NCBI GenBank assembly: GCA_000961765.1
Contig: LADT01000019.1
Span: 7,110 to 71,109, forward strand
Length of the DNA stretch: 64,000 nt
Direction: 5' to 3'
Origin: Clostridiaceae bacterium BRH_c20a
Lineage (GTDB): Bacteria; Bacillota; Peptococcia; Peptococcales; BICA1-8
Every line of letters starts with the position of its first letter. Positions within the stretch are counted from its first letter, which is position 1. The position numbers and the translations under genes were made by a program. A model generated the notes under the pieces. The model did not search any database. It was not told where the DNA came from and saw nothing but the letters and a program-made list of their open reading frames with translations. Shown here in pieces: positions 5,411 through 10,456 of this stretch.

Positions 5411-6106
5411 CTAAGACATAAAGAATTTATAACCAGCACCTTTAATAGTCTTTATATAGATAGGGTGGGGGGGGTCTTTTTCGATTTTCCTCCGGATATT
5501 GCTGATGTGAACCATTACGGTTCGGTGATCTCCAAGACTTTCCATACCCCAAAGTGATTGAAACAGCTGCTCGCTGCTAAATACGGTATTAGGGTTTTGA
5601 GCTAATAATGCCAGAAGTTGAAATTCCTTAGGGGATAAAGTGACAGGTTTTTCATTTACCATAACTGATAAACTTATTAAGTCTATAGTTAAGCCCGGAT
5701 ATGTTAAGAGCTTATCGGAACTATTTGTTCTTTTTAACATTCGGCTTCTGCGTAAATGAGCTTTTACCCTTGCCAAGAGTTCCAATGCATCAAATGGTTT
5801 ACTTATGTAGTCATCTCCGCCGGCTGTCAGACCCATGGATTTTTCTATTGGTGTCCCTTTACAACTGAGGAAAATAATAGGTGTTGTTAGCTGTTTGCGA
5901 ATTTCTTGGCAAACCTCAATTCCGTCTAGCCCTGGCAGCATCATATCCAGGATAATTAAATCTGGATTGGCGGTGAGGGCATTTGCTATTGCTTGGTGTC
6001 CGTCCGAAGCTATAATTACTTGATAGCTTTCCTTTTCTAAATATAGAGTAAGTATTTCTCTGATATCCTCATCATCATCAACTATTAGTATTGTTTCCCC
6101 TGCCAA
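5411..6106 (-). CDS. OmpR/PhoB-family response regulator
   Basis: 231 aa; TTG start 7 nt after GAGGAGG; receiver domain (ILIVDDDEDI, DLIILDMMLPGLDG) plus winged-helix output domain (TVMVHISNIRRKIE, IKTIKGAGYKF). Confidence 0.93.
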   Translation of the reverse strand: MAGETILIVDDDEDIREILTLYLEKESYQVIIASDGHQAIANALTANPDLIILDMMLPGLDGIEVCQEIRKQLTTPIIFLSCKGTPIEKSMGLTAGGDDYISKPFDALELLARVKAHLRRSRMLKRTNSSDKLLTYPGLTIDLISLSVMVNEKPVTLSPKEFQLLALLAQNPNTVFSSEQLFQSLWGMESLGDHRTVMVHISNIRRKIEKDPPHPIYIKTIKGAGYKFFMS

Positions 6107-6148
6107 AGTACGTCCTCCTCTAAAGTTATGATGCTCAGCAAAGTGAGC

Positions 6149-6318
6149 TTACCTTTCAACCCATATTTGCCTACCCTGGTATTCTACAATTTCCTTGGCG
6201 GTAGCTAAGCCTAGACCGCTGCTTTTGTGACTAGAAGTCTTACTTTAGACACTTTATAGAAAAGATCAAATATATGAGGTAAATCTTTTTCGGGAATTCC
6301 TATTCCTGTATCTTGGCA
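6149..6318 (-). pseudogene. histidine kinase remnant (C-terminal HATPase_c fragment only)
   Basis: Minus-strand translation gives DTGIGIPEKDLPHIFDLFYKV. After a frame change it gives GLGLATAKEIVEYQGRQIWVER-stop. There is a stop 3 codons upstream of DTGIG and no HisKA or sensor coding upstream. Confidence 0.8.
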
Positions 6319-6510
6319 TCTTTAACTTTTAAAGAATATTTAAGGTTTACTTAAGGTTGTGTTGAAGCTCTAAGCTATCATTTAAGAGTAAAATATTTAT
6401 ATATAAAACATTTCGCTATTGTCGTCATAATTCCTTTTGTTTTGGTGTTTAATATCAAAATTTGTCGCATTTAAAGAATTCTTAAACAATAAAGGAAAGG
6501 AGCATATATT

Positions 6511-6696
6511 ATGTTAGTACTAGGTAGAAGACCGGGTGAGTATATTGTAATTAACGATTCTATTATCGTAAAAGTAGTTAAAAGTGAAAATGGTGATTTA
6601 AGGCTGGCAATCGAAGCACCTCAGGAAATAAATATAGTCCGAGGAGAAATTTATGAAGAGCAAGAAGATGAAAGAGGGAAGAAAGAGGCGTGTTAA
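6511..6696 (+). CDS. csrA: carbon storage regulator CsrA (copy 1)
   Basis: 61 aa MLVLGRRPGEYIVI..VKVV..LAIEAPQEINIVRGEIYE, canonical CsrA signature; SD AAAGGAAAGGAG. Confidence 0.93.
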   Translation: MLVLGRRPGEYIVINDSIIVKVVKSENGDLRLAIEAPQEINIVRGEIYEEQEDERGKKEAC

Positions 6697-6837
6697 TTTT
6701 AATTAAAAAATACGGTCTCTAATATAAGTTGAGTTTTTATTTTTGAACTATTAACGAGAAAACCTGTTCTTCGGAAGGTCTTGAAAGAGATGACAGGTTG
6801 CTTGTGAAAATAGTTCTATTTTTTTAAAAAAATACTC

Positions 6838-6864
6838 TAAAGTTTTTCAAAAAACTAACGATAT
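6838..6864 (+). promoter_or_regulatory. sigma-D/sigma-28-type promoter candidate
   Basis: TAAA-N15-AACGATAT versus consensus TAAA-N15-GCCGATAT (10 of 12 positions, exact 15-nt spacer). Confidence 0.55.
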
Positions 6865-6915
6865 AATTAGTAACGGATTATACTATCAATTAGAATTAAA
6901 TACTTAGTACCCAAG

Positions 6916-6986
6916 GACGATTTTGTTAGGTCTTACTTTCTTTGCAGGAGGCAAAGAGGTAGGTAATAGCAAATCGTCTTTTTTTT
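6916..6986 (+). promoter_or_regulatory. terminator-like long hairpin carrying a GGA-loop hairpin (CsrA-site-like)
   Basis: Outer stem GACGATTT (6916-6923) / AAATCGTC (6971-6978) followed by T8; nested CTTTGC-AGGAG-GCAAAG (6940-6956). Confidence 0.6.
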
Positions 6987-7043
6987 ATTCCAGAGAAAGC
7001 TAAAAATACTCAAACAAAAATAACTTCAAGGGGGAAAGACAAA

Positions 7044-7217
7044 ATGTTGGTACTTGGTAGAAAGCCTGGGGAGTATGTAATGATAGGAGAAAATATTAAG
7101 GTTAAGGTAGTGAAAAGTGATAAGGGAGCCTTGCGTTTTGCCATTGAAGCTCCCAAAGATGTAAGCATTGTCAGGGGTGAGGTTTATGAGGCCAAAAGAC
7201 TAGCTGAAGAAGCCTAG
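7044..7217 (+). CDS. csrA: carbon storage regulator CsrA (copy 2; below the ORF-track length cutoff)
   Basis: 57 aa MLVLGRKPGEYVMIGENIKVKVVKSDKGALRFAIEAPKDVSIVRGEVYEAKRLAEEA; SD AAGGGGGA. Confidence 0.9.
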   Translation: MLVLGRKPGEYVMIGENIKVKVVKSDKGALRFAIEAPKDVSIVRGEVYEAKRLAEEA

Positions 7218-7258
7218 GAAGAAATTTGAGACATTAGAATAAATTGATGTGATTTCAG

Positions 7259-7318
7259 GGACGAGTAATTATCTTATTCAGCAGGATGCTGTAAAAGGGA
7301 TAATTTACTCGTCCTTTT
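7259..7318 (+). promoter_or_regulatory. second terminator-like hairpin with nested GGA-loop hairpin
   Basis: GGACGAGTAATTATC / GATAATTTACTCGTCC outer stem then TTTT; nested CAGC-AGGAT-GCTG (7279-7291). Confidence 0.55.
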
Positions 7319-7372
7319 AAATCTATATTTCCCCATATAAGTCAAGGTGGCCATAGGCTTATTGAGGAACAA

Positions 7373-7422
7373 TTTTTGCGAAAAAGGATGTTCGCAAAAA
7401 AAAACAAAAAAAACAGGGAGGA
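7373..7422 (+). promoter_or_regulatory. flagellin mRNA leader with two CsrA-type sites
   Basis: Hairpin TTTTTGCGAA-AAAGGATG-TTCGCAAAAA (7373-7400, GGA in loop) plus SD AGGGAGGA (7415-7422); same two-site layout as the B. subtilis hag leader. Confidence 0.6.
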
Positions 7423-7429
7423 ATTATTA

Positions 7430-10400
7430 ATGAGAATTAACAACAACTTAATGGCAATGAATACCCATCGTCAGTTGGGTATGAACCAAGCAGGTGGTGC
7501 CAAATCTTTAGAAAAGCTTTCATCAGGCTTAAGGATTAACAGAGCTGGTGATGATGCGGCAGGCTTGGCAATCAGTGAAAAAATGAGAGGTCAGATTCGG
7601 GGCTTGAACCAGGCTACAAGAAATGCCCAAGATGGTATTTCTCTAATTCAAACTGCAGAAGGTGCTTTACAAGAAACCCATGCTATTTTACAGAGAATGA
7701 GAGAATTGGGAGTGCAGGCAGGTACAGATGTAGTTACTGATTCTGACAGGCAAAATATTCAATCTGAGATTGATCAGCTAACTAATGAAATCTCAAGGAT
7801 TTCAAACACTACCGAGTTTAACCAGAATAATTTATTAGCCGGTGGATTTAATGACAAAAGTGTTCTGATTGGTGCAAACCAGGGTCAAAACGTTTCTTTT
7901 TCTATTGGCAAGATGGATGCTAAGAGTTTAGGTGTAACTAGCGATGTAATTACCGCAAATATCGCAAATGATTCAGCAGGAATTAGTGCTGCCGTTCTTC
8001 GTGATGGCACTGGAGCAGCTCAATATGCAGGTCAAACTATAGGAATCACAAGTACACTCTTGCAAGCTGATAGCGCTGGTCAACTACAGGGTTCTAGTGC
8101 CGCCCAAACTATCAATGATGCTCAAGCAGCAGAAGCCGTTGCAACAGCTGTTTTTGGTGCAGGTGCGGATGCAACTTCAGCGAGCATTAATGCATATAAG
8201 GCAATGAATACAGCTGCCACCTATGCAACTGGAACAATTGATGCTAGCAGTAATGGTACTTTGACTGCGGCTAGTCAAGCTACTTATGTGACTGGAGCTA
8301 TTGATGCAAATGCTTTAACAGATGCTACAGATCAAGTATTTACATTTACCATGGAAGGTGTAAACGGTGGAAATGGCGTAGGAGTTGCCTTTGATATTAC
8401 TGTTACTGCTGGTACTGATTGGACTCAAGGCGTTGACCAGGATACAGATGGTGCAAGTTTAGCAGCTGCGCTACAACTTAAACTTTCTGGTAAGGTGGGT
8501 GAGTCTGTAACGGTTGACTACGATAGTGGCAATGACACATTAACTTTTACTAGAGGTGTAACAGGCGACAATAATTTAATAACATTAACAAATGTTACAG
8601 ATAATGGAGCCGGAGTTGCAGCTTTTACTACAGATGGTGTAGCTGCGGACGGTACCAACGGGACAACAACATTTAACTTCACCATGGCAGGCGTAAACGG
8701 TGGAAATGGCGTAGGTGCTGCTTTTAATGTTACTCTTACTGAAGGTGTCGATTGGACCCAGAATGGTGTTCAAGATGATTCTGGCACCTCCCTAGCTGCT
8801 GCCCTATCAACTAAACTTTCTGCAATTGCGGGTCAGGCTATAACTGCCAATTATGATACTGCTACTGATGCTATGACTTTCACTACAGCCCAAAAAGGCA
8901 GCGACCAGTCAATTGTACTAAACTCAGTTACTAATGAAGCAACTGCTACTGTAGCAGGATTTACTGAAGGTGTAGCAGCTACTGCTGGTACAGGTACAGG
9001 CTCTGTTGATGGTACCGGCTACGGCGTGGTCAGAATGAGCATTGATGATACCGCCTTTAATGTTACTATTAATGAAAGTTCGACACTAGCCAATGTGTTA
9101 GATAATATCAATTCTGCAGCTAATACTGCTTTAGGAACTACTGGCGTAACCTATGCTAGTGAGGACACGGGTAGTATAGTTATTACTTCAAATACCGACA
9201 GCACTGGTTCTTCAGTTAAAATTATCGGCGACTTTGAGTCTGATGGTACAACTTCCGCTAACGGTGCCCTTTTGCAAAACTTAGGTCTTTCTCTTAGTGC
9301 TACTAGTCAGACAGGGATGTCCGATGTAGGAGCAAGTGGAACAGCAGGAACATTTAGCTTAACTGTAAATGGTACTTCCTTTGATGTTACACTCCAAGAT
9401 GGTGATGATATTGACGCTGTGACAACAGCTATAAATGCTGCTGCTGAAACTGCCGGCGTTATCGATAATGGTGATGCGTTGGCTGCTAATGATGGTACAA
9501 TAATTACTTTAACTTCTTCTGATGTAAAAACCGGAGCTGGGACTGGCTCAAATGCCAATATCATTATTGGAGAAGACGATAATGGGGGTAAAACTTTAGC
9601 AGCACTAGGACTTACTTCAGGAACATATGGGGGTGCAGATGCTACTTCCGGTTCTTTAAGGATAGCTATCGATGGTACTGAATTTTCAGTAGGGTTAACT
9701 GATGGAAGTGATGCAACTGCTGTAGCCAATGCTATTAATGCTTCTGCTAATACCGCCCTTGGAACCTCAAGTCAGAACTATGCCTCAGTTAGTCAAGGAA
9801 AATTAGTTATTGAATCTCTTACTTCTGGAAGTAATTCTTCAGTAGGAATTTTAAATGATAATACCTCCGGTAGGACTATTGAAGCCTTAGGCTTACAAGT
9901 GGGAACAGTCTCAGGAGCAAACACGGGGCAATTACAGGTTGTTGCTTCTGTAGGTGGGGCTTCAGAAAGTGTAGCAATTGATACGAATGCAGATATAATT
10001 AAATTTAGTCAGGCTTTTGCAGGCTTAACCTTAACAAAAGATGCTGCCCATAATACAGCTGGAACTGCTGATATTGCAACTTCTGTTTTAAAGTCAGAAG
10101 CAGCTGCTATGACTACTGACGGACGTATTAAATCAGAAGCTAGTGTACAAAAGGGTATACTAGTGGATACAGCAGACGCTGCCAACAAAGCGGTTACAGC
10201 GATAAATAATGCAATAGCTAGTGTGTCTGATCAACGCTCAGCTTTAGGTGCTTTACAAAATAGATTAGAGCATACTATTAGCAACTTGGGTGCATCAGCT
10301 GAAAACTTACAAGCTGCTGAATCTCGAGTCAGAGATGTGGACATGGCTGCCGAAATGATGCAGTTCACTAAGAATAATATCCTGCAACAAGCAGCAACTG

Positions 10401-10456
10401 CAATGCTGGCTCAAGCAAACCAAGCACCACAAGGAGTACTGCAGCTTCTTAGATAA
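7430..10456 (+). CDS. fliC: giant flagellin (1008 aa)
   Basis: ATG 7430 with a good SD; the ORF-track TTG 7376 lies inside the leader hairpin. N-terminal MRINNNLMAMNTHRQL..LRINRAGDDAAGLAISEKMR. C-terminal LGALQNRLEHTISNL..MAAEMMQFTKNNILQQAATAMLAQANQAPQGVLQLLR. About 730-aa Thr/Ala/Gly-rich insert. Confidence 0.95.
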   Translation: MRINNNLMAMNTHRQLGMNQAGGAKSLEKLSSGLRINRAGDDAAGLAISEKMRGQIRGLNQATRNAQDGISLIQTAEGALQETHAILQRMRELGVQAGTDVVTDSDRQNIQSEIDQLTNEISRISNTTEFNQNNLLAGGFNDKSVLIGANQGQNVSFSIGKMDAKSLGVTSDVITANIANDSAGISAAVLRDGTGAAQYAGQTIGITSTLLQADSAGQLQGSSAAQTINDAQAAEAVATAVFGAGADATSASINAYKAMNTAATYATGTIDASSNGTLTAASQATYVTGAIDANALTDATDQVFTFTMEGVNGGNGVGVAFDITVTAGTDWTQGVDQDTDGASLAAALQLKLSGKVGESVTVDYDSGNDTLTFTRGVTGDNNLITLTNVTDNGAGVAAFTTDGVAADGTNGTTTFNFTMAGVNGGNGVGAAFNVTLTEGVDWTQNGVQDDSGTSLAAALSTKLSAIAGQAITANYDTATDAMTFTTAQKGSDQSIVLNSVTNEATATVAGFTEGVAATAGTGTGSVDGTGYGVVRMSIDDTAFNVTINESSTLANVLDNINSAANTALGTTGVTYASEDTGSIVITSNTDSTGSSVKIIGDFESDGTTSANGALLQNLGLSLSATSQTGMSDVGASGTAGTFSLTVNGTSFDVTLQDGDDIDAVTTAINAAAETAGVIDNGDALAANDGTIITLTSSDVKTGAGTGSNANIIIGEDDNGGKTLAALGLTSGTYGGADATSGSLRIAIDGTEFSVGLTDGSDATAVANAINASANTALGTSSQNYASVSQGKLVIESLTSGSNSSVGILNDNTSGRTIEALGLQVGTVSGANTGQLQVVASVGGASESVAIDTNADIIKFSQAFAGLTLTKDAAHNTAGTADIATSVLKSEAAAMTTDGRIKSEASVQKGILVDTADAANKAVTAINNAIASVSDQRSALGALQNRLEHTISNLGASAENLQAAESRVRDVDMAAEMMQFTKNNILQQAATAMLAQANQAPQGVLQLLR
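8336..9001 (+). repeat. intragenic tandem duplication, two ~111-aa units in the flagellin variable region
   Basis: FTMEGVNGGNGVGVAFDITVTAGTDWTQ versus FTMAGVNGGNGVGAAFNVTLTEGVDWTQ; period 333 nt. Confidence 0.85.
9026..10040 (+). repeat. three to four ~90-aa flagellin-IN-motif-like units
   Basis: MSIDDTAFNVTI.., LTVNGTSFDVTL.., IAIDGTEFSVGL.., VAIDTNADIIKF.. Each is followed by ..A..IN..A.. and ..LGL.. patterns. Confidence 0.65.

Follow-up and report, generated by a model that had tools for sequence, protein, structure and literature searches.

CsrA controls flagellin in Gram-positive bacteria through a protein partner switch (Hag-FliW-CsrA) that acts on translation, and most knowledge of RNAs that antagonise CsrA, and of its part in transcription, comes from Proteobacteria. 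In the RAT/terminator antiterminator systems (BglG/SacY/LicT), the protein binds a leader site that shares sequence with the 5' strand of an intrinsic terminator, and binding prevents the terminator from forming. Effects of CsrA on transcription termination have been described in E. coli, at pgaA, and in Legionella, at the gap operon and thi leader (PMC5338858). The C-terminal extension beyond the CsrA core is the region that contacts FliW (PMC7652899). A recent preprint describes csrA-tldR-fliC loci, several of which may occur in one genome, and CsrA RIP-seq from another Clostridia system in which a CAAGGAUG loop ~50 nt upstream of fliC was enriched (bioRxiv 10.1101/2025.07.22.666180).

Here we analyzed a 64-kb stretch of DNA (the window) in which two csrA genes, csrA1 and csrA2, precede a gene for a giant flagellin. 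The features of this locus are listed in the Table. For comparison, we used 80 related loci of Clostridia, Bacilli and Negativicutes.

Table. Features of the csrA-flagellin locus (window coordinates; promoter and RNA elements are predictions)
Feature	Position	Strand	Description
csrA1	6511..6696	+	short CsrA paralogue, 61 aa; Pfam CsrA PF02599, E 4.5e-20
csrA1 terminator	6745..6825	+	ordinary hairpin and U-run, loop without GGA (fold)
sigma-28 (SigD/FliA)-like promoter	6838..6864	+	TAAA-N15-AACGATAT, pattern match; predicted
M1a	6912..6987	+	terminator-shaped RNA motif; covariance model R1 63.7 bits, E 8e-15
M1a base site	6912-6920	+	CAAGGACGA at 5' base of stem
M1a apical hairpin	6940-6956	+	CUUUGC-AGGAG-GCAAAG, then 3' arm and U8
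csrA2 Shine-Dalgarno	7030-7035	+	GGGGGA
csrA2	ORF 7044-7217 (feature 7030..7217)	+	57 aa; Pfam CsrA, E 1.9e-21
M1b	7256..7322	+	second motif copy; R1 58.7 bits, E 2e-13
M1b apical hairpin	7279-7291	+	CAGC-AGGAU-GCUG; 5' base site CAGGGACGAG
M2 leader hairpin	7337..7362	+	AUAAGUC-AAGGUGGCCAUA-GGCUUAU, loop with GGCC palindrome
GGA after M2	7366-7368	+	sequence
hag BS1-like hairpin	7373..7400	+	TTTTTGCGAA-AAAGGATG-TTCGCAAAAA, loop AAAGGAUG; z = -3.7 vs shuffles
Flagellin Shine-Dalgarno	7415..7422	+	AGGGAGGA; second CsrA-type site of the leader
Giant flagellin	7430..10456	+	1008 aa; Pfam Flagellin_N and Flagellin_C

A first-pass annotation of this DNA had described two csrA paralogues that are about two-thirds identical. 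Indeed, both proteins belong to the CsrA family (71.8 bits for csrA1 and 76.2 bits for csrA2 against a PF02599 cut-off of 27, with the domain matched over its whole length), and 33 of 51 aligned residues (65%) are the same. The csrA2 product matches a 'Clostridiaceae bacterium BRH_c20a' protein at 100% identity. Residues 1-50 of E. coli CsrA (1y00) align to csrA2 from MLVLGRK... to ...SIVRGEVY, and the RNA-binding residues of regions 1 and 2 that csrA2 retains (L2, L4, R6, R44) are invariant in alignment A2. Both window proteins score below the cut-off of 70.1 of the NCBIfam CsrA equivalog (TIGR00202/NF002469; csrA1 58.9, csrA2 60.6), which a long CsrA from related locus L042 passes with 94.5-97. 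Short homologues have a median length of 57 aa (n = 116). csrA1, a unit of its own with M1 on neither side, is kept in two related loci (L001 and L003), as is its terminator hairpin. We also considered whether the short csrA cassette came from a phage or another mobile element, and rejected this after finding no relative in IMG/VR viral contigs.

The annotation had also found no FliW-like ORF, and we confirm this for the 64-kb window: its 140-170 aa ORFs belong to other Pfam families, and tblastn with seven FliW sequences gave a best E value of 0.26. When fliW was present in related loci, it adjoined only a long csrA, upstream of it (10/10 loci). The FliW-linked CsrAs are 74-81 aa long, compared with 57 and 61 aa in the window. 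We class csrA1 and csrA2 as a divergent short CsrA subfamily, devoid of the C-terminal extension that FliW uses. Because they lack it, the short CsrAs are probably FliW-insensitive, tied instead to the cis-acting M1 RNAs described below, and an antagonism by FliW of the B. subtilis kind appears doubtful for them.

Sequence and folds agree with the three GGA-loop hairpins, and with the Shine-Dalgarno site, as previously annotated. The first two hairpins had been placed inside terminator-like stems of parallel design, and these proved to be copies of one motif, which we call M1. The long stem of M1a (6913-6981) encloses its apical hairpin with a dG of -29.7 kcal/mol (z = -6.4 vs shuffles), and that of M1b (7257-7316) does so with a dG of -27.8 (z = -6.5). 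In both long stems, the 5' base holds a further CsrA-type site that is likewise invariant (CAAGGACGA / CAGGGACGA). M1a is a stable stem-loop with a U-run following at once, the form of an intrinsic terminator. M1b has this form in part; its U tract is weak (UUUUAAAU), with merely UUUU after the stem, and given these four U's it may act as a weak terminator. The hairpin region folds better on the plus than on the minus strand, and the covariance model R1 has exactly two strong matches in the 64-kb window, the minus-strand echo of M1b reaching just 21.9 bits. M1a carries compensatory changes relative to L001. Rfam 15 gave no gathering-level matches across the window, and at permissive E-values only chance-level matches (E ~1 or higher) were seen in 6100-7500. 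A mini-ORF (AUG GAC GAG UAA) at the M1 base was considered and rejected; most copies read CAA or CAG there, not CAU. Compared with shuffled sequence, the window alone shows no strong excess of GGA (6697-7043, P 0.26; 7218-7429, P 0.02), and the significance of these sites rests on their conservation in other genomes.

That conservation is extensive. M1 is a ~70-nt RNA motif in which a long, covarying stem is combined with two CsrA-consensus sites that do not vary, usually followed by a U-run; the base site reads CA-N-GGA-Y-GA at the 5' stem base and the apical-loop site GCAGGA-N-GC. A strict search yielded 131 instances in the 80 loci, 127 of them adjoining a short csrA on its upstream or downstream side. 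R1 gave ~146 plus-strand matches in the loci, all flanking csrA, and far lower scores on the minus strand. For 69 non-redundant copies (MAFFT alignment A3), RNAalifold predicted 18 pairs, 15 of them with compensatory changes. Paired cells amounted to 89.5%, compared with 37-52% when partners were slid, and the covariation score was 0.66 vs 0.11-0.18 for slid partners, a value reached by 0/500 shuffles. Upstream copies had a U-run of at least 5 in 84/90 cases, with a median dG of -33. To pass the screen that supplied these instances, a copy had to have its base GGA paired to the 3' end and to end in a T-rich tail, so the paired percentage and U-run figures are partly circular; arm covariation and model matches are less affected. 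The GGA is 100% invariant at both positions, 25-35 nt apart. Around the base GGA (YCA-N-GGA-Y-G-A), G at +4 is found in 100% and A at +5 in 93% of copies, and the apical consensus is GC-A-GGA-N-G-C. The partner of the base GG is C or U, and base G's that stay fixed while their partners drift argue for a constraint beyond pairing. M1 was never free-standing in the 633 kb searched, being always in cis to csrA, and two copies per unit are usual. In 44/90 cases the gap between M1 and the csrA ATG is 21-40 nt, leaving no room for a promoter. Literature searches returned no description of short CsrAs, of an M1-like motif or of CsrA-controlled intrinsic terminators in Firmicutes. M1 is apparently a previously undescribed conserved RNA element.

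A scan of the plus strand of 6100-7500 with sigma-70 and terminator consensus patterns gave nothing useful. When we looked for sigma-28 promoters (properly spaced boxes resembling TAAA-N15-GCCGATAA), a match was found just upstream of M1a, with a predicted transcription start near 6872-6875. Its -35 and -10 boxes are retained in L001 and L003 with a variable spacer. In 41/67 loci an M1 has a sigma-28-like motif 27-85 nt ahead of it, compared with 82/4314 background windows; the strict motif is absent from the other 26/67. Of the related spacers between csrA and flagellin, 61/62 contain no sigma-28-like promoter, and none lies between csrA2 and 7430. Flagellin genes unlinked to a short csrA have such a promoter directly upstream. 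This placement suggests that csrA2 forms part of the transcription unit of the flagellin, in the order promoter, M1a, csrA2, M1b, leader, giant flagellin; an unrecognised internal promoter of the flagellin gene may be an alternative start. A TATAAAT box after the M2 hairpin was rejected as a -10 element because the hairpin and box lie inside the 5'UTR where flagellins have a clear upstream sigma-28 promoter, and because the window's own M2 copy is without the box.

The leader in front of the flagellin gene is of the hag type, as the annotation had proposed: a GGA-loop hairpin is combined with a second GGA overlapping the Shine-Dalgarno sequence, both predicted CsrA sites, and the arrangement recurs in most related flagellin genes. 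In these, the GGA hairpin lies 43-57 nt upstream of the start codon, and AAGGAGG or AGGGAGG is kept as the Shine-Dalgarno sequence in all related intergenic regions. The M2 hairpin is identical in L001, and most genes for related flagellins have an equivalent with a covarying stem at -75 to -105. Linked flagellins have a median size of 730 aa with a short csrA vs 410 aa with a long one.

Taken together, these observations suggest that M1 most likely makes transcription of the csrA-flagellin unit respond to CsrA. In the reading that we prefer, to which we give roughly even odds (about 0.5), M1a and M1b would be CsrA-responsive conditional intrinsic terminators, with the flagellin also under classical translational repression. 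CsrA would probably act as an antiterminator at M1. A CsrA dimer, of the short or the canonical form, would capture both sites, the 5' strand of the lower stem and the apical loop, on nascent RNA; since folding of the terminator pairs the base GGA, binding there would require kinetic capture. The captured 5' strand would stay single-stranded, formation of the stem beside the U-run would be blocked, and RNA polymerase would read through. Consistently, when M1 was folded with both sites forced single-stranded, the remaining hairpin no longer abutted the U-run, and dG changed (M1a, -30.2 to -20.1; M1b, -27.8 to -10.8). Without CsrA, M1 would terminate transcription, and a short RNA (~110 nt) would be released. 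The flagellin mRNA would in addition be repressed in the classical way at the loop GGA hairpin and the Shine-Dalgarno sequence. Since the linked flagellin leader has CsrA-type sites of its own, repression of this mRNA at the level of translation is at odds with a simple scheme in which CsrA switches the operon on. More tentatively, M1 could be a dedicated CsrA-dependent antiterminator that, with a FliW-insensitive short CsrA, forms a self-reinforcing switch for an alternative, often giant, flagellin. The earlier interpretation holds for the paralogues, the hairpins and the hag-type leader, and had missed the base GGA sites, the sigma-28-like promoter, the embedding of csrA2 and the short subfamily. 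Its suggestion that the long stems couple CsrA to termination or read-through is strengthened, because both stems belong to one conserved, covarying motif that has U-runs and in which the GGA sites do not vary.

M1 could instead consist of constitutive terminators whose released RNAs titrate CsrA, with basal read-through supplying csrA and flagellin mRNA. The RNAs concerned would be a sigma-28-driven one of ~110 nt ending at M1a (6872-6986) and the 3' end of csrA2 mRNA at M1b, a small cis-encoded Gram-positive counterpart of CsrB/RsmZ. Promoter, GGA sites and terminator together are indeed what a small RNA gene consists of, folded M1 RNA exposes its apical GGA loop, the usual unit has two M1 copies, and an RNA antagonist would fill a gap where the short CsrA is without its FliW-binding tail. 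Each such RNA has just 2-3 GGA sites, one of which is paired upon folding (three, one paired, between 6875 and 6986, where promoter and terminator are also present), and the Rfam Csr/Rsm families gave no match. M1 is moreover always in cis, 21-40 nt before csrA, and never free-standing in 633 kb; a strong terminator right before the sole gene it precedes argues for regulated read-through. We consider CsrA titration rather unlikely as the main role of M1, though it is compatible with an attenuator. Far less probable is that the stems are ordinary terminators or stabilising stem-loops, their GGA motifs incidental or serving another factor, and that the sole CsrA control is B. subtilis-type flagellin repression with fliW elsewhere. 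A hag-like leader is clearly present and conserved, related genomes also carry a canonical fliW-csrA(long)-flagellin module, and window-only GGA counts barely exceed chance. Such stems would not be expected to have, in 131 copies from three Bacillota classes, a covarying structure with GGA 100% invariant at each of two fixed places, to match the CsrA consensus beyond GGA at both sites, to occur only beside short csrA, or to lie inside leaders, directly upstream of csrA start codons.

A different possibility, which we regard as doubtful but not far-fetched, concerns the protein: a short CsrA co-expressed with an alternative giant flagellin would repress translation of the cell's other flagellin genes, a role already suggested at csrA-tldR-fliC loci, and M1 would insulate or autoregulate the cassette. 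Short-csrA-linked flagellins are indeed much larger than canonical ones, and several loci contain both module types side by side. The preprint reports csrA paralogues by alternative fliC genes behind FliA promoters in Oscillibacter and Flavonifractor, with CsrA enriched on the CAAGGAUG hairpin of another fliC 5'UTR (bioRxiv 10.1101/2025.07.22.666180). Against this, no TldR is present here, the linked flagellin has the same kind of CsrA sites as other flagellins, and the genome's other flagellin genes lie outside the window. Such a switch describes a trans role of the protein, which alone does not explain M1.

If the more tentative reading of M1 as a dedicated CsrA-dependent antiterminator is true, intrinsic terminators under CsrA control would have their first class in M1, and FliW-type Gram-positives their first RNA-level Csr circuit. 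A CsrA-site terminator module around a FliW-independent CsrA would add a transcription-level, RNA-based layer to the Hag-FliW-CsrA paradigm, and would help explain the choice among several flagellin genes, giant ones included. M1 is compact (~70 nt) and open to clear mutational tests, and its carriers include cultivable and in part genetically tractable bacteria (Clostridium ljungdahlii, C. tetanomorphum, Paenibacillus, Sporomusa, Desulfosporosinus), which opens the hypothesis to direct tests.

The csrA-tldR-fliC loci of Oscillibacter and Flavonifractor resemble this locus in tying an extra csrA to alternative flagellins behind FliA-dependent promoters; here there is neither TldR nor a guide RNA, and the passages of the preprint that were consulted do not mention M1 elements. 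B. subtilis Hag-FliW-CsrA shares with it a csrA immediately upstream of the flagellin gene, a leader with a GGA-loop hairpin ~45 nt before the start and a GGA-containing Shine-Dalgarno sequence, and a sigma-D/sigma-28 type promoter. Unlike in B. subtilis, the CsrAs are 57-61 aa long, without the FliW-contacting C-terminal extension, no fliW is adjacent, the promoter is upstream of csrA and not between csrA and flagellin, and csrA is bracketed by two terminator-shaped CsrA-site elements. Csr/Rsm sponges (CsrB, CsrC, RsmX/Y/Z) are likewise short transcripts with loop GGA motifs and an intrinsic terminator end, whereas M1 has just 2-3 GGA per RNA, is always cis-linked to csrA and is hosted by FliW-type Gram-positives, where no such RNAs are described. 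As in RAT-type systems, the predicted M1 site lies on the 5' strand of a terminator whose formation binding would block, but here a CsrA dimer is predicted to bind and to bridge a pair of GGA sites, and M1 has no sequence relation to RAT. In the proteobacterial cases (pgaA, gap, thi), too, A(N)GGA sites are alternately paired and exposed, and RNA is remodelled and termination changed (PMC5338858). Those are single loci, mostly Rho-dependent; M1 is a predicted, conserved modular intrinsic-terminator motif with two fixed sites, which occurs in ~146 copies across the 80 loci and is specific to the csrA-flagellin units of Bacillota.

Both long stems of the window represent a single conserved RNA motif, M1, an approximately 70-nt terminator-shaped structure with two GGA sites. 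The first-pass annotation had placed two csrA paralogues, about two-thirds identical, head-to-tail before a flagellin gene, with three GGA-loop hairpins and no FliW-like ORF in the window. Each of these points held: csrA1 and csrA2 lie head-to-tail upstream of the flagellin gene and share 33 of 51 residues (65%), all three hairpins were present at their positions when the sequence was checked, and no FliW is encoded anywhere in the 64 kb. The stem at 6913-6981 (dG -29.7, z -6.4) is followed by U8, and that at 7257-7316 (dG -27.8, z -6.5) by UUUU; the hairpin at 7373-7400 has a z of -3.7, and the + strand gives the better folding of the three hairpins. Within the window alone, GGA counts in the two spacers exceed chance only slightly (P 0.26 and P 0.02), so the case for CsrA sites rests on other genomes. 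csrA1 is its own unit, ending in an ordinary terminator (6745-6825) with no GGA loop. A sigma-28/SigD-like promoter that had gone unmentioned follows, and the first long stem begins 48 nt downstream of it; its boxes are retained, with a changed spacer, in syntenic loci of Peptococcaceae BICA1-8 (L001) and a Peptococcales MAG (L003).

Features of the csrA-flagellin region of the window
Feature	Position	Strand	Remarks
csrA1	6511-6696	+	61 aa; Pfam PF02599 match
Sigma-28/SigD-like promoter	6838-6864	+	TAAA-N15-AACGATAT; consensus fit
csrA2	7044-7217	+	57 aa; Pfam PF02599 match; 100% identity with a protein from the MAG 'Clostridiaceae bacterium BRH_c20a'
M2 (flagellin-leader hairpin)	7337-7362	+	related loci have counterparts at roughly -75 to -105 relative to the flagellin start codon
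Flagellin gene	7430-10456	+	1008 aa; Flagellin_N + Flagellin_C

The ribosome-binding regions of csrA1 (around 6507-6510, AAAGGAAAGGAGC) and csrA2 (7030-7035, AAGGGGGAAAG) both contain GGA, which, by analogy with E. coli csrA, would allow translational autorepression. Upstream, a frameshifted histidine kinase remnant comprising only the last ~67 codons occupies 6122-6321 (- strand), next to a response regulator (5411-6106). The syntenic BICA1-8 locus carries a 724-aa kinase between response regulator and csrA1, which indicates a deletion of ~1.95 kb in the window that orphaned the response regulator.

An alignment of short CsrAs, searched against one genome per GTDB species, brought up 178 relatives that were confirmed; 80 loci from among them were retained for comparison. 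These belong to Clostridia (Clostridium, Desulfosporosinus, Vallitalea, Tepidanaerobacteraceae and others), Bacilli (Paenibacillus, Cohnella, Brevibacillus, Sporosarcina, Peribacillus and others) and Negativicutes (Sporomusa, Pelosinus). A flagellin gene lies downstream on the same strand in 78/80, and about half carry two tandem short csrA copies; the median length of the short CsrAs is 57 aa. They retain the RNA-binding residues (L2, L4, R6 and R44 are invariant in the CsrA protein alignment), and alignment to E. coli CsrA 1y00 spans residues 1-50. Ten of the loci also encode a distant long CsrA (74-81 aa, 38-52% identity). All ten long csrA genes have a FliW ORF upstream, as detected by tblastn and NCBIfam, and another flagellin downstream; FliW was never found adjoining a short csrA in the loci examined. 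Short CsrAs score below the NCBI CsrA equivalog cut-offs, whereas long CsrAs pass. The flagellins downstream of short csrA are unusually long: 1008 aa in the window and up to 1190 aa elsewhere, with a median of 730 aa and 33/56 of at least 600 aa. For flagellins linked to long csrA, the median is 410 aa.

A thermodynamic screen of the 80 loci yielded 131 strict M1 instances: 90 directly upstream of a short csrA, 37 between short csrA and flagellin, three after a short csrA for which the next 700 nt showed no flagellin, and one not adjoining csrA. From a MAFFT alignment of 69 non-redundant copies (A3), RNAalifold predicted 18 pairs, with compensatory changes in 15. The proportion of paired cells in A3 was 89.5%, compared with 37-52% when partners were slid by 1-3 columns, although this percentage, like the U-run statistics, is partly circular because the screen selected for pairing between the base and the 3' end and for a tail rich in T. 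The covariation score was 0.66 (0.11-0.18 with slid partners), a value reached by 0/500 shuffles. A covariance model of M1 found exactly two strong matches in the 64-kb window, at 6912-6987 (63.7 bits) and 7256-7322 (58.7 bits), and ~146 plus-strand matches in the 80 loci, with far weaker minus-strand echoes. All of the ~146 flank a short csrA except one downstream of a flagellin gene (L046, 5817-5889). A further copy follows csrA with no flagellin nearby (L041, 4225-4294); hence, M1 is not strictly a csrA leader. Rfam holds nothing comparable to M1.

M1 has two invariant sites. The first, at the 5' base, is YCA-N-GGA-Y-G-A (GGA 100%, +4 G 100%, +5 A 93%), and the second is the apical loop, GC-A-GGA-N-G-C. 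On the 3' arm, the base GG pairs with either C or U, so the G's stay constant as the bases opposite them vary. SELEX work reportedly gave CA-R-GGA-U-G as the CsrA consensus, and both M1 sites resemble it. The GGA-to-GGA distance is 25-35 nt (median 31), and one CsrA dimer is able to bridge sites at such distances. In RIP-seq, a Clostridia CsrA was enriched at the motif CAAGGAUG (bioRxiv 10.1101/2025.07.22.666180), which the M1 base site matches.

In 44/90 cases, the gap from the end of the upstream M1 to the csrA start codon is 21-40 nt, so transcription of csrA must pass through the motif. Of 67 loci, 41 have a strict sigma-28 motif at 27-85 nt before an M1, against 82/4314 background windows, whereas 61 of the 62 csrA-to-flagellin spacers searched lack it; short csrA and M1 are thus located downstream of the flagellar promoter and ahead of the flagellin leader. 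Where a flagellin gene stands alone or comes after a long csrA, its leader has a sigma-28 promoter directly upstream. Units usually contain two M1 copies, one on each side of csrA or both ahead of it. The flagellin leader itself consists, in order, of M2, a GGA-loop hairpin at -43 to -57 and the Shine-Dalgarno sequence.

Many Bacillota have the conserved hairpin M2 in their flagellin 5'UTRs, in canonical fliW-csrA-flagellin and short-csrA units alike, and its stems covary. Its apical loop very often contains a GC-rich palindrome (GUGGCCAU, CGGCCG, CCCGGG; AGCGCGCA in Paenibacillus-type loci), which suggests either that mRNAs pair with one another through kissing loops or that a dimeric protein binds there. 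In loci of Paenibacillus/Bacillaceae type (L013, L016, L017, L023, L025, L029, L031 and similar), the csrA-to-flagellin spacer lacks a long M1; it is instead a near-identical ~160-nt leader with 5-6 GGA motifs (CCACUUAAGGACGAGUGG, GUCAAGGAAGAU, GGAUGCAAACGGAUAGGCAUCC, CAUGGAGGUAAUG), while csrA is preceded by two copies of M1.

M1 places a strong terminator within a leader and has two invariant CsrA-type sites, one of which lies on the 5' strand of its lower stem; together these features suggest that termination there is under protein control. Upstream copies have a median dG of -33 and a U-run of at least 5 in 84/90, the screen having selected T-rich tails. When both sites were forced to be single-stranded during folding, the residual hairpin no longer abutted the U-run; capture of both by a CsrA dimer on nascent RNA should thus leave no terminator next to the U-run and cause read-through. 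The main rival explanation, that the terminated RNA of ~110 nt serves as a cis-encoded CsrA decoy, is less likely, and is compatible with termination control. With its poor U tract, the second M1 of the window may be less a terminator than a structure for binding. In trans, the short CsrA may influence which flagellin isoform is chosen; such a role has been proposed for csrA-tldR-fliC loci (bioRxiv 10.1101/2025.07.22.666180).

Searches of Rfam and the literature did not find a conserved intrinsic-terminator module with CsrA-type sites bracketing a probably FliW-independent short CsrA. CsrA paralogues adjoining flagellin genes and hag-type leaders are already known, and CsrA alters termination at pgaA, the Legionella gap operon and the thi leader (PMC5338858).
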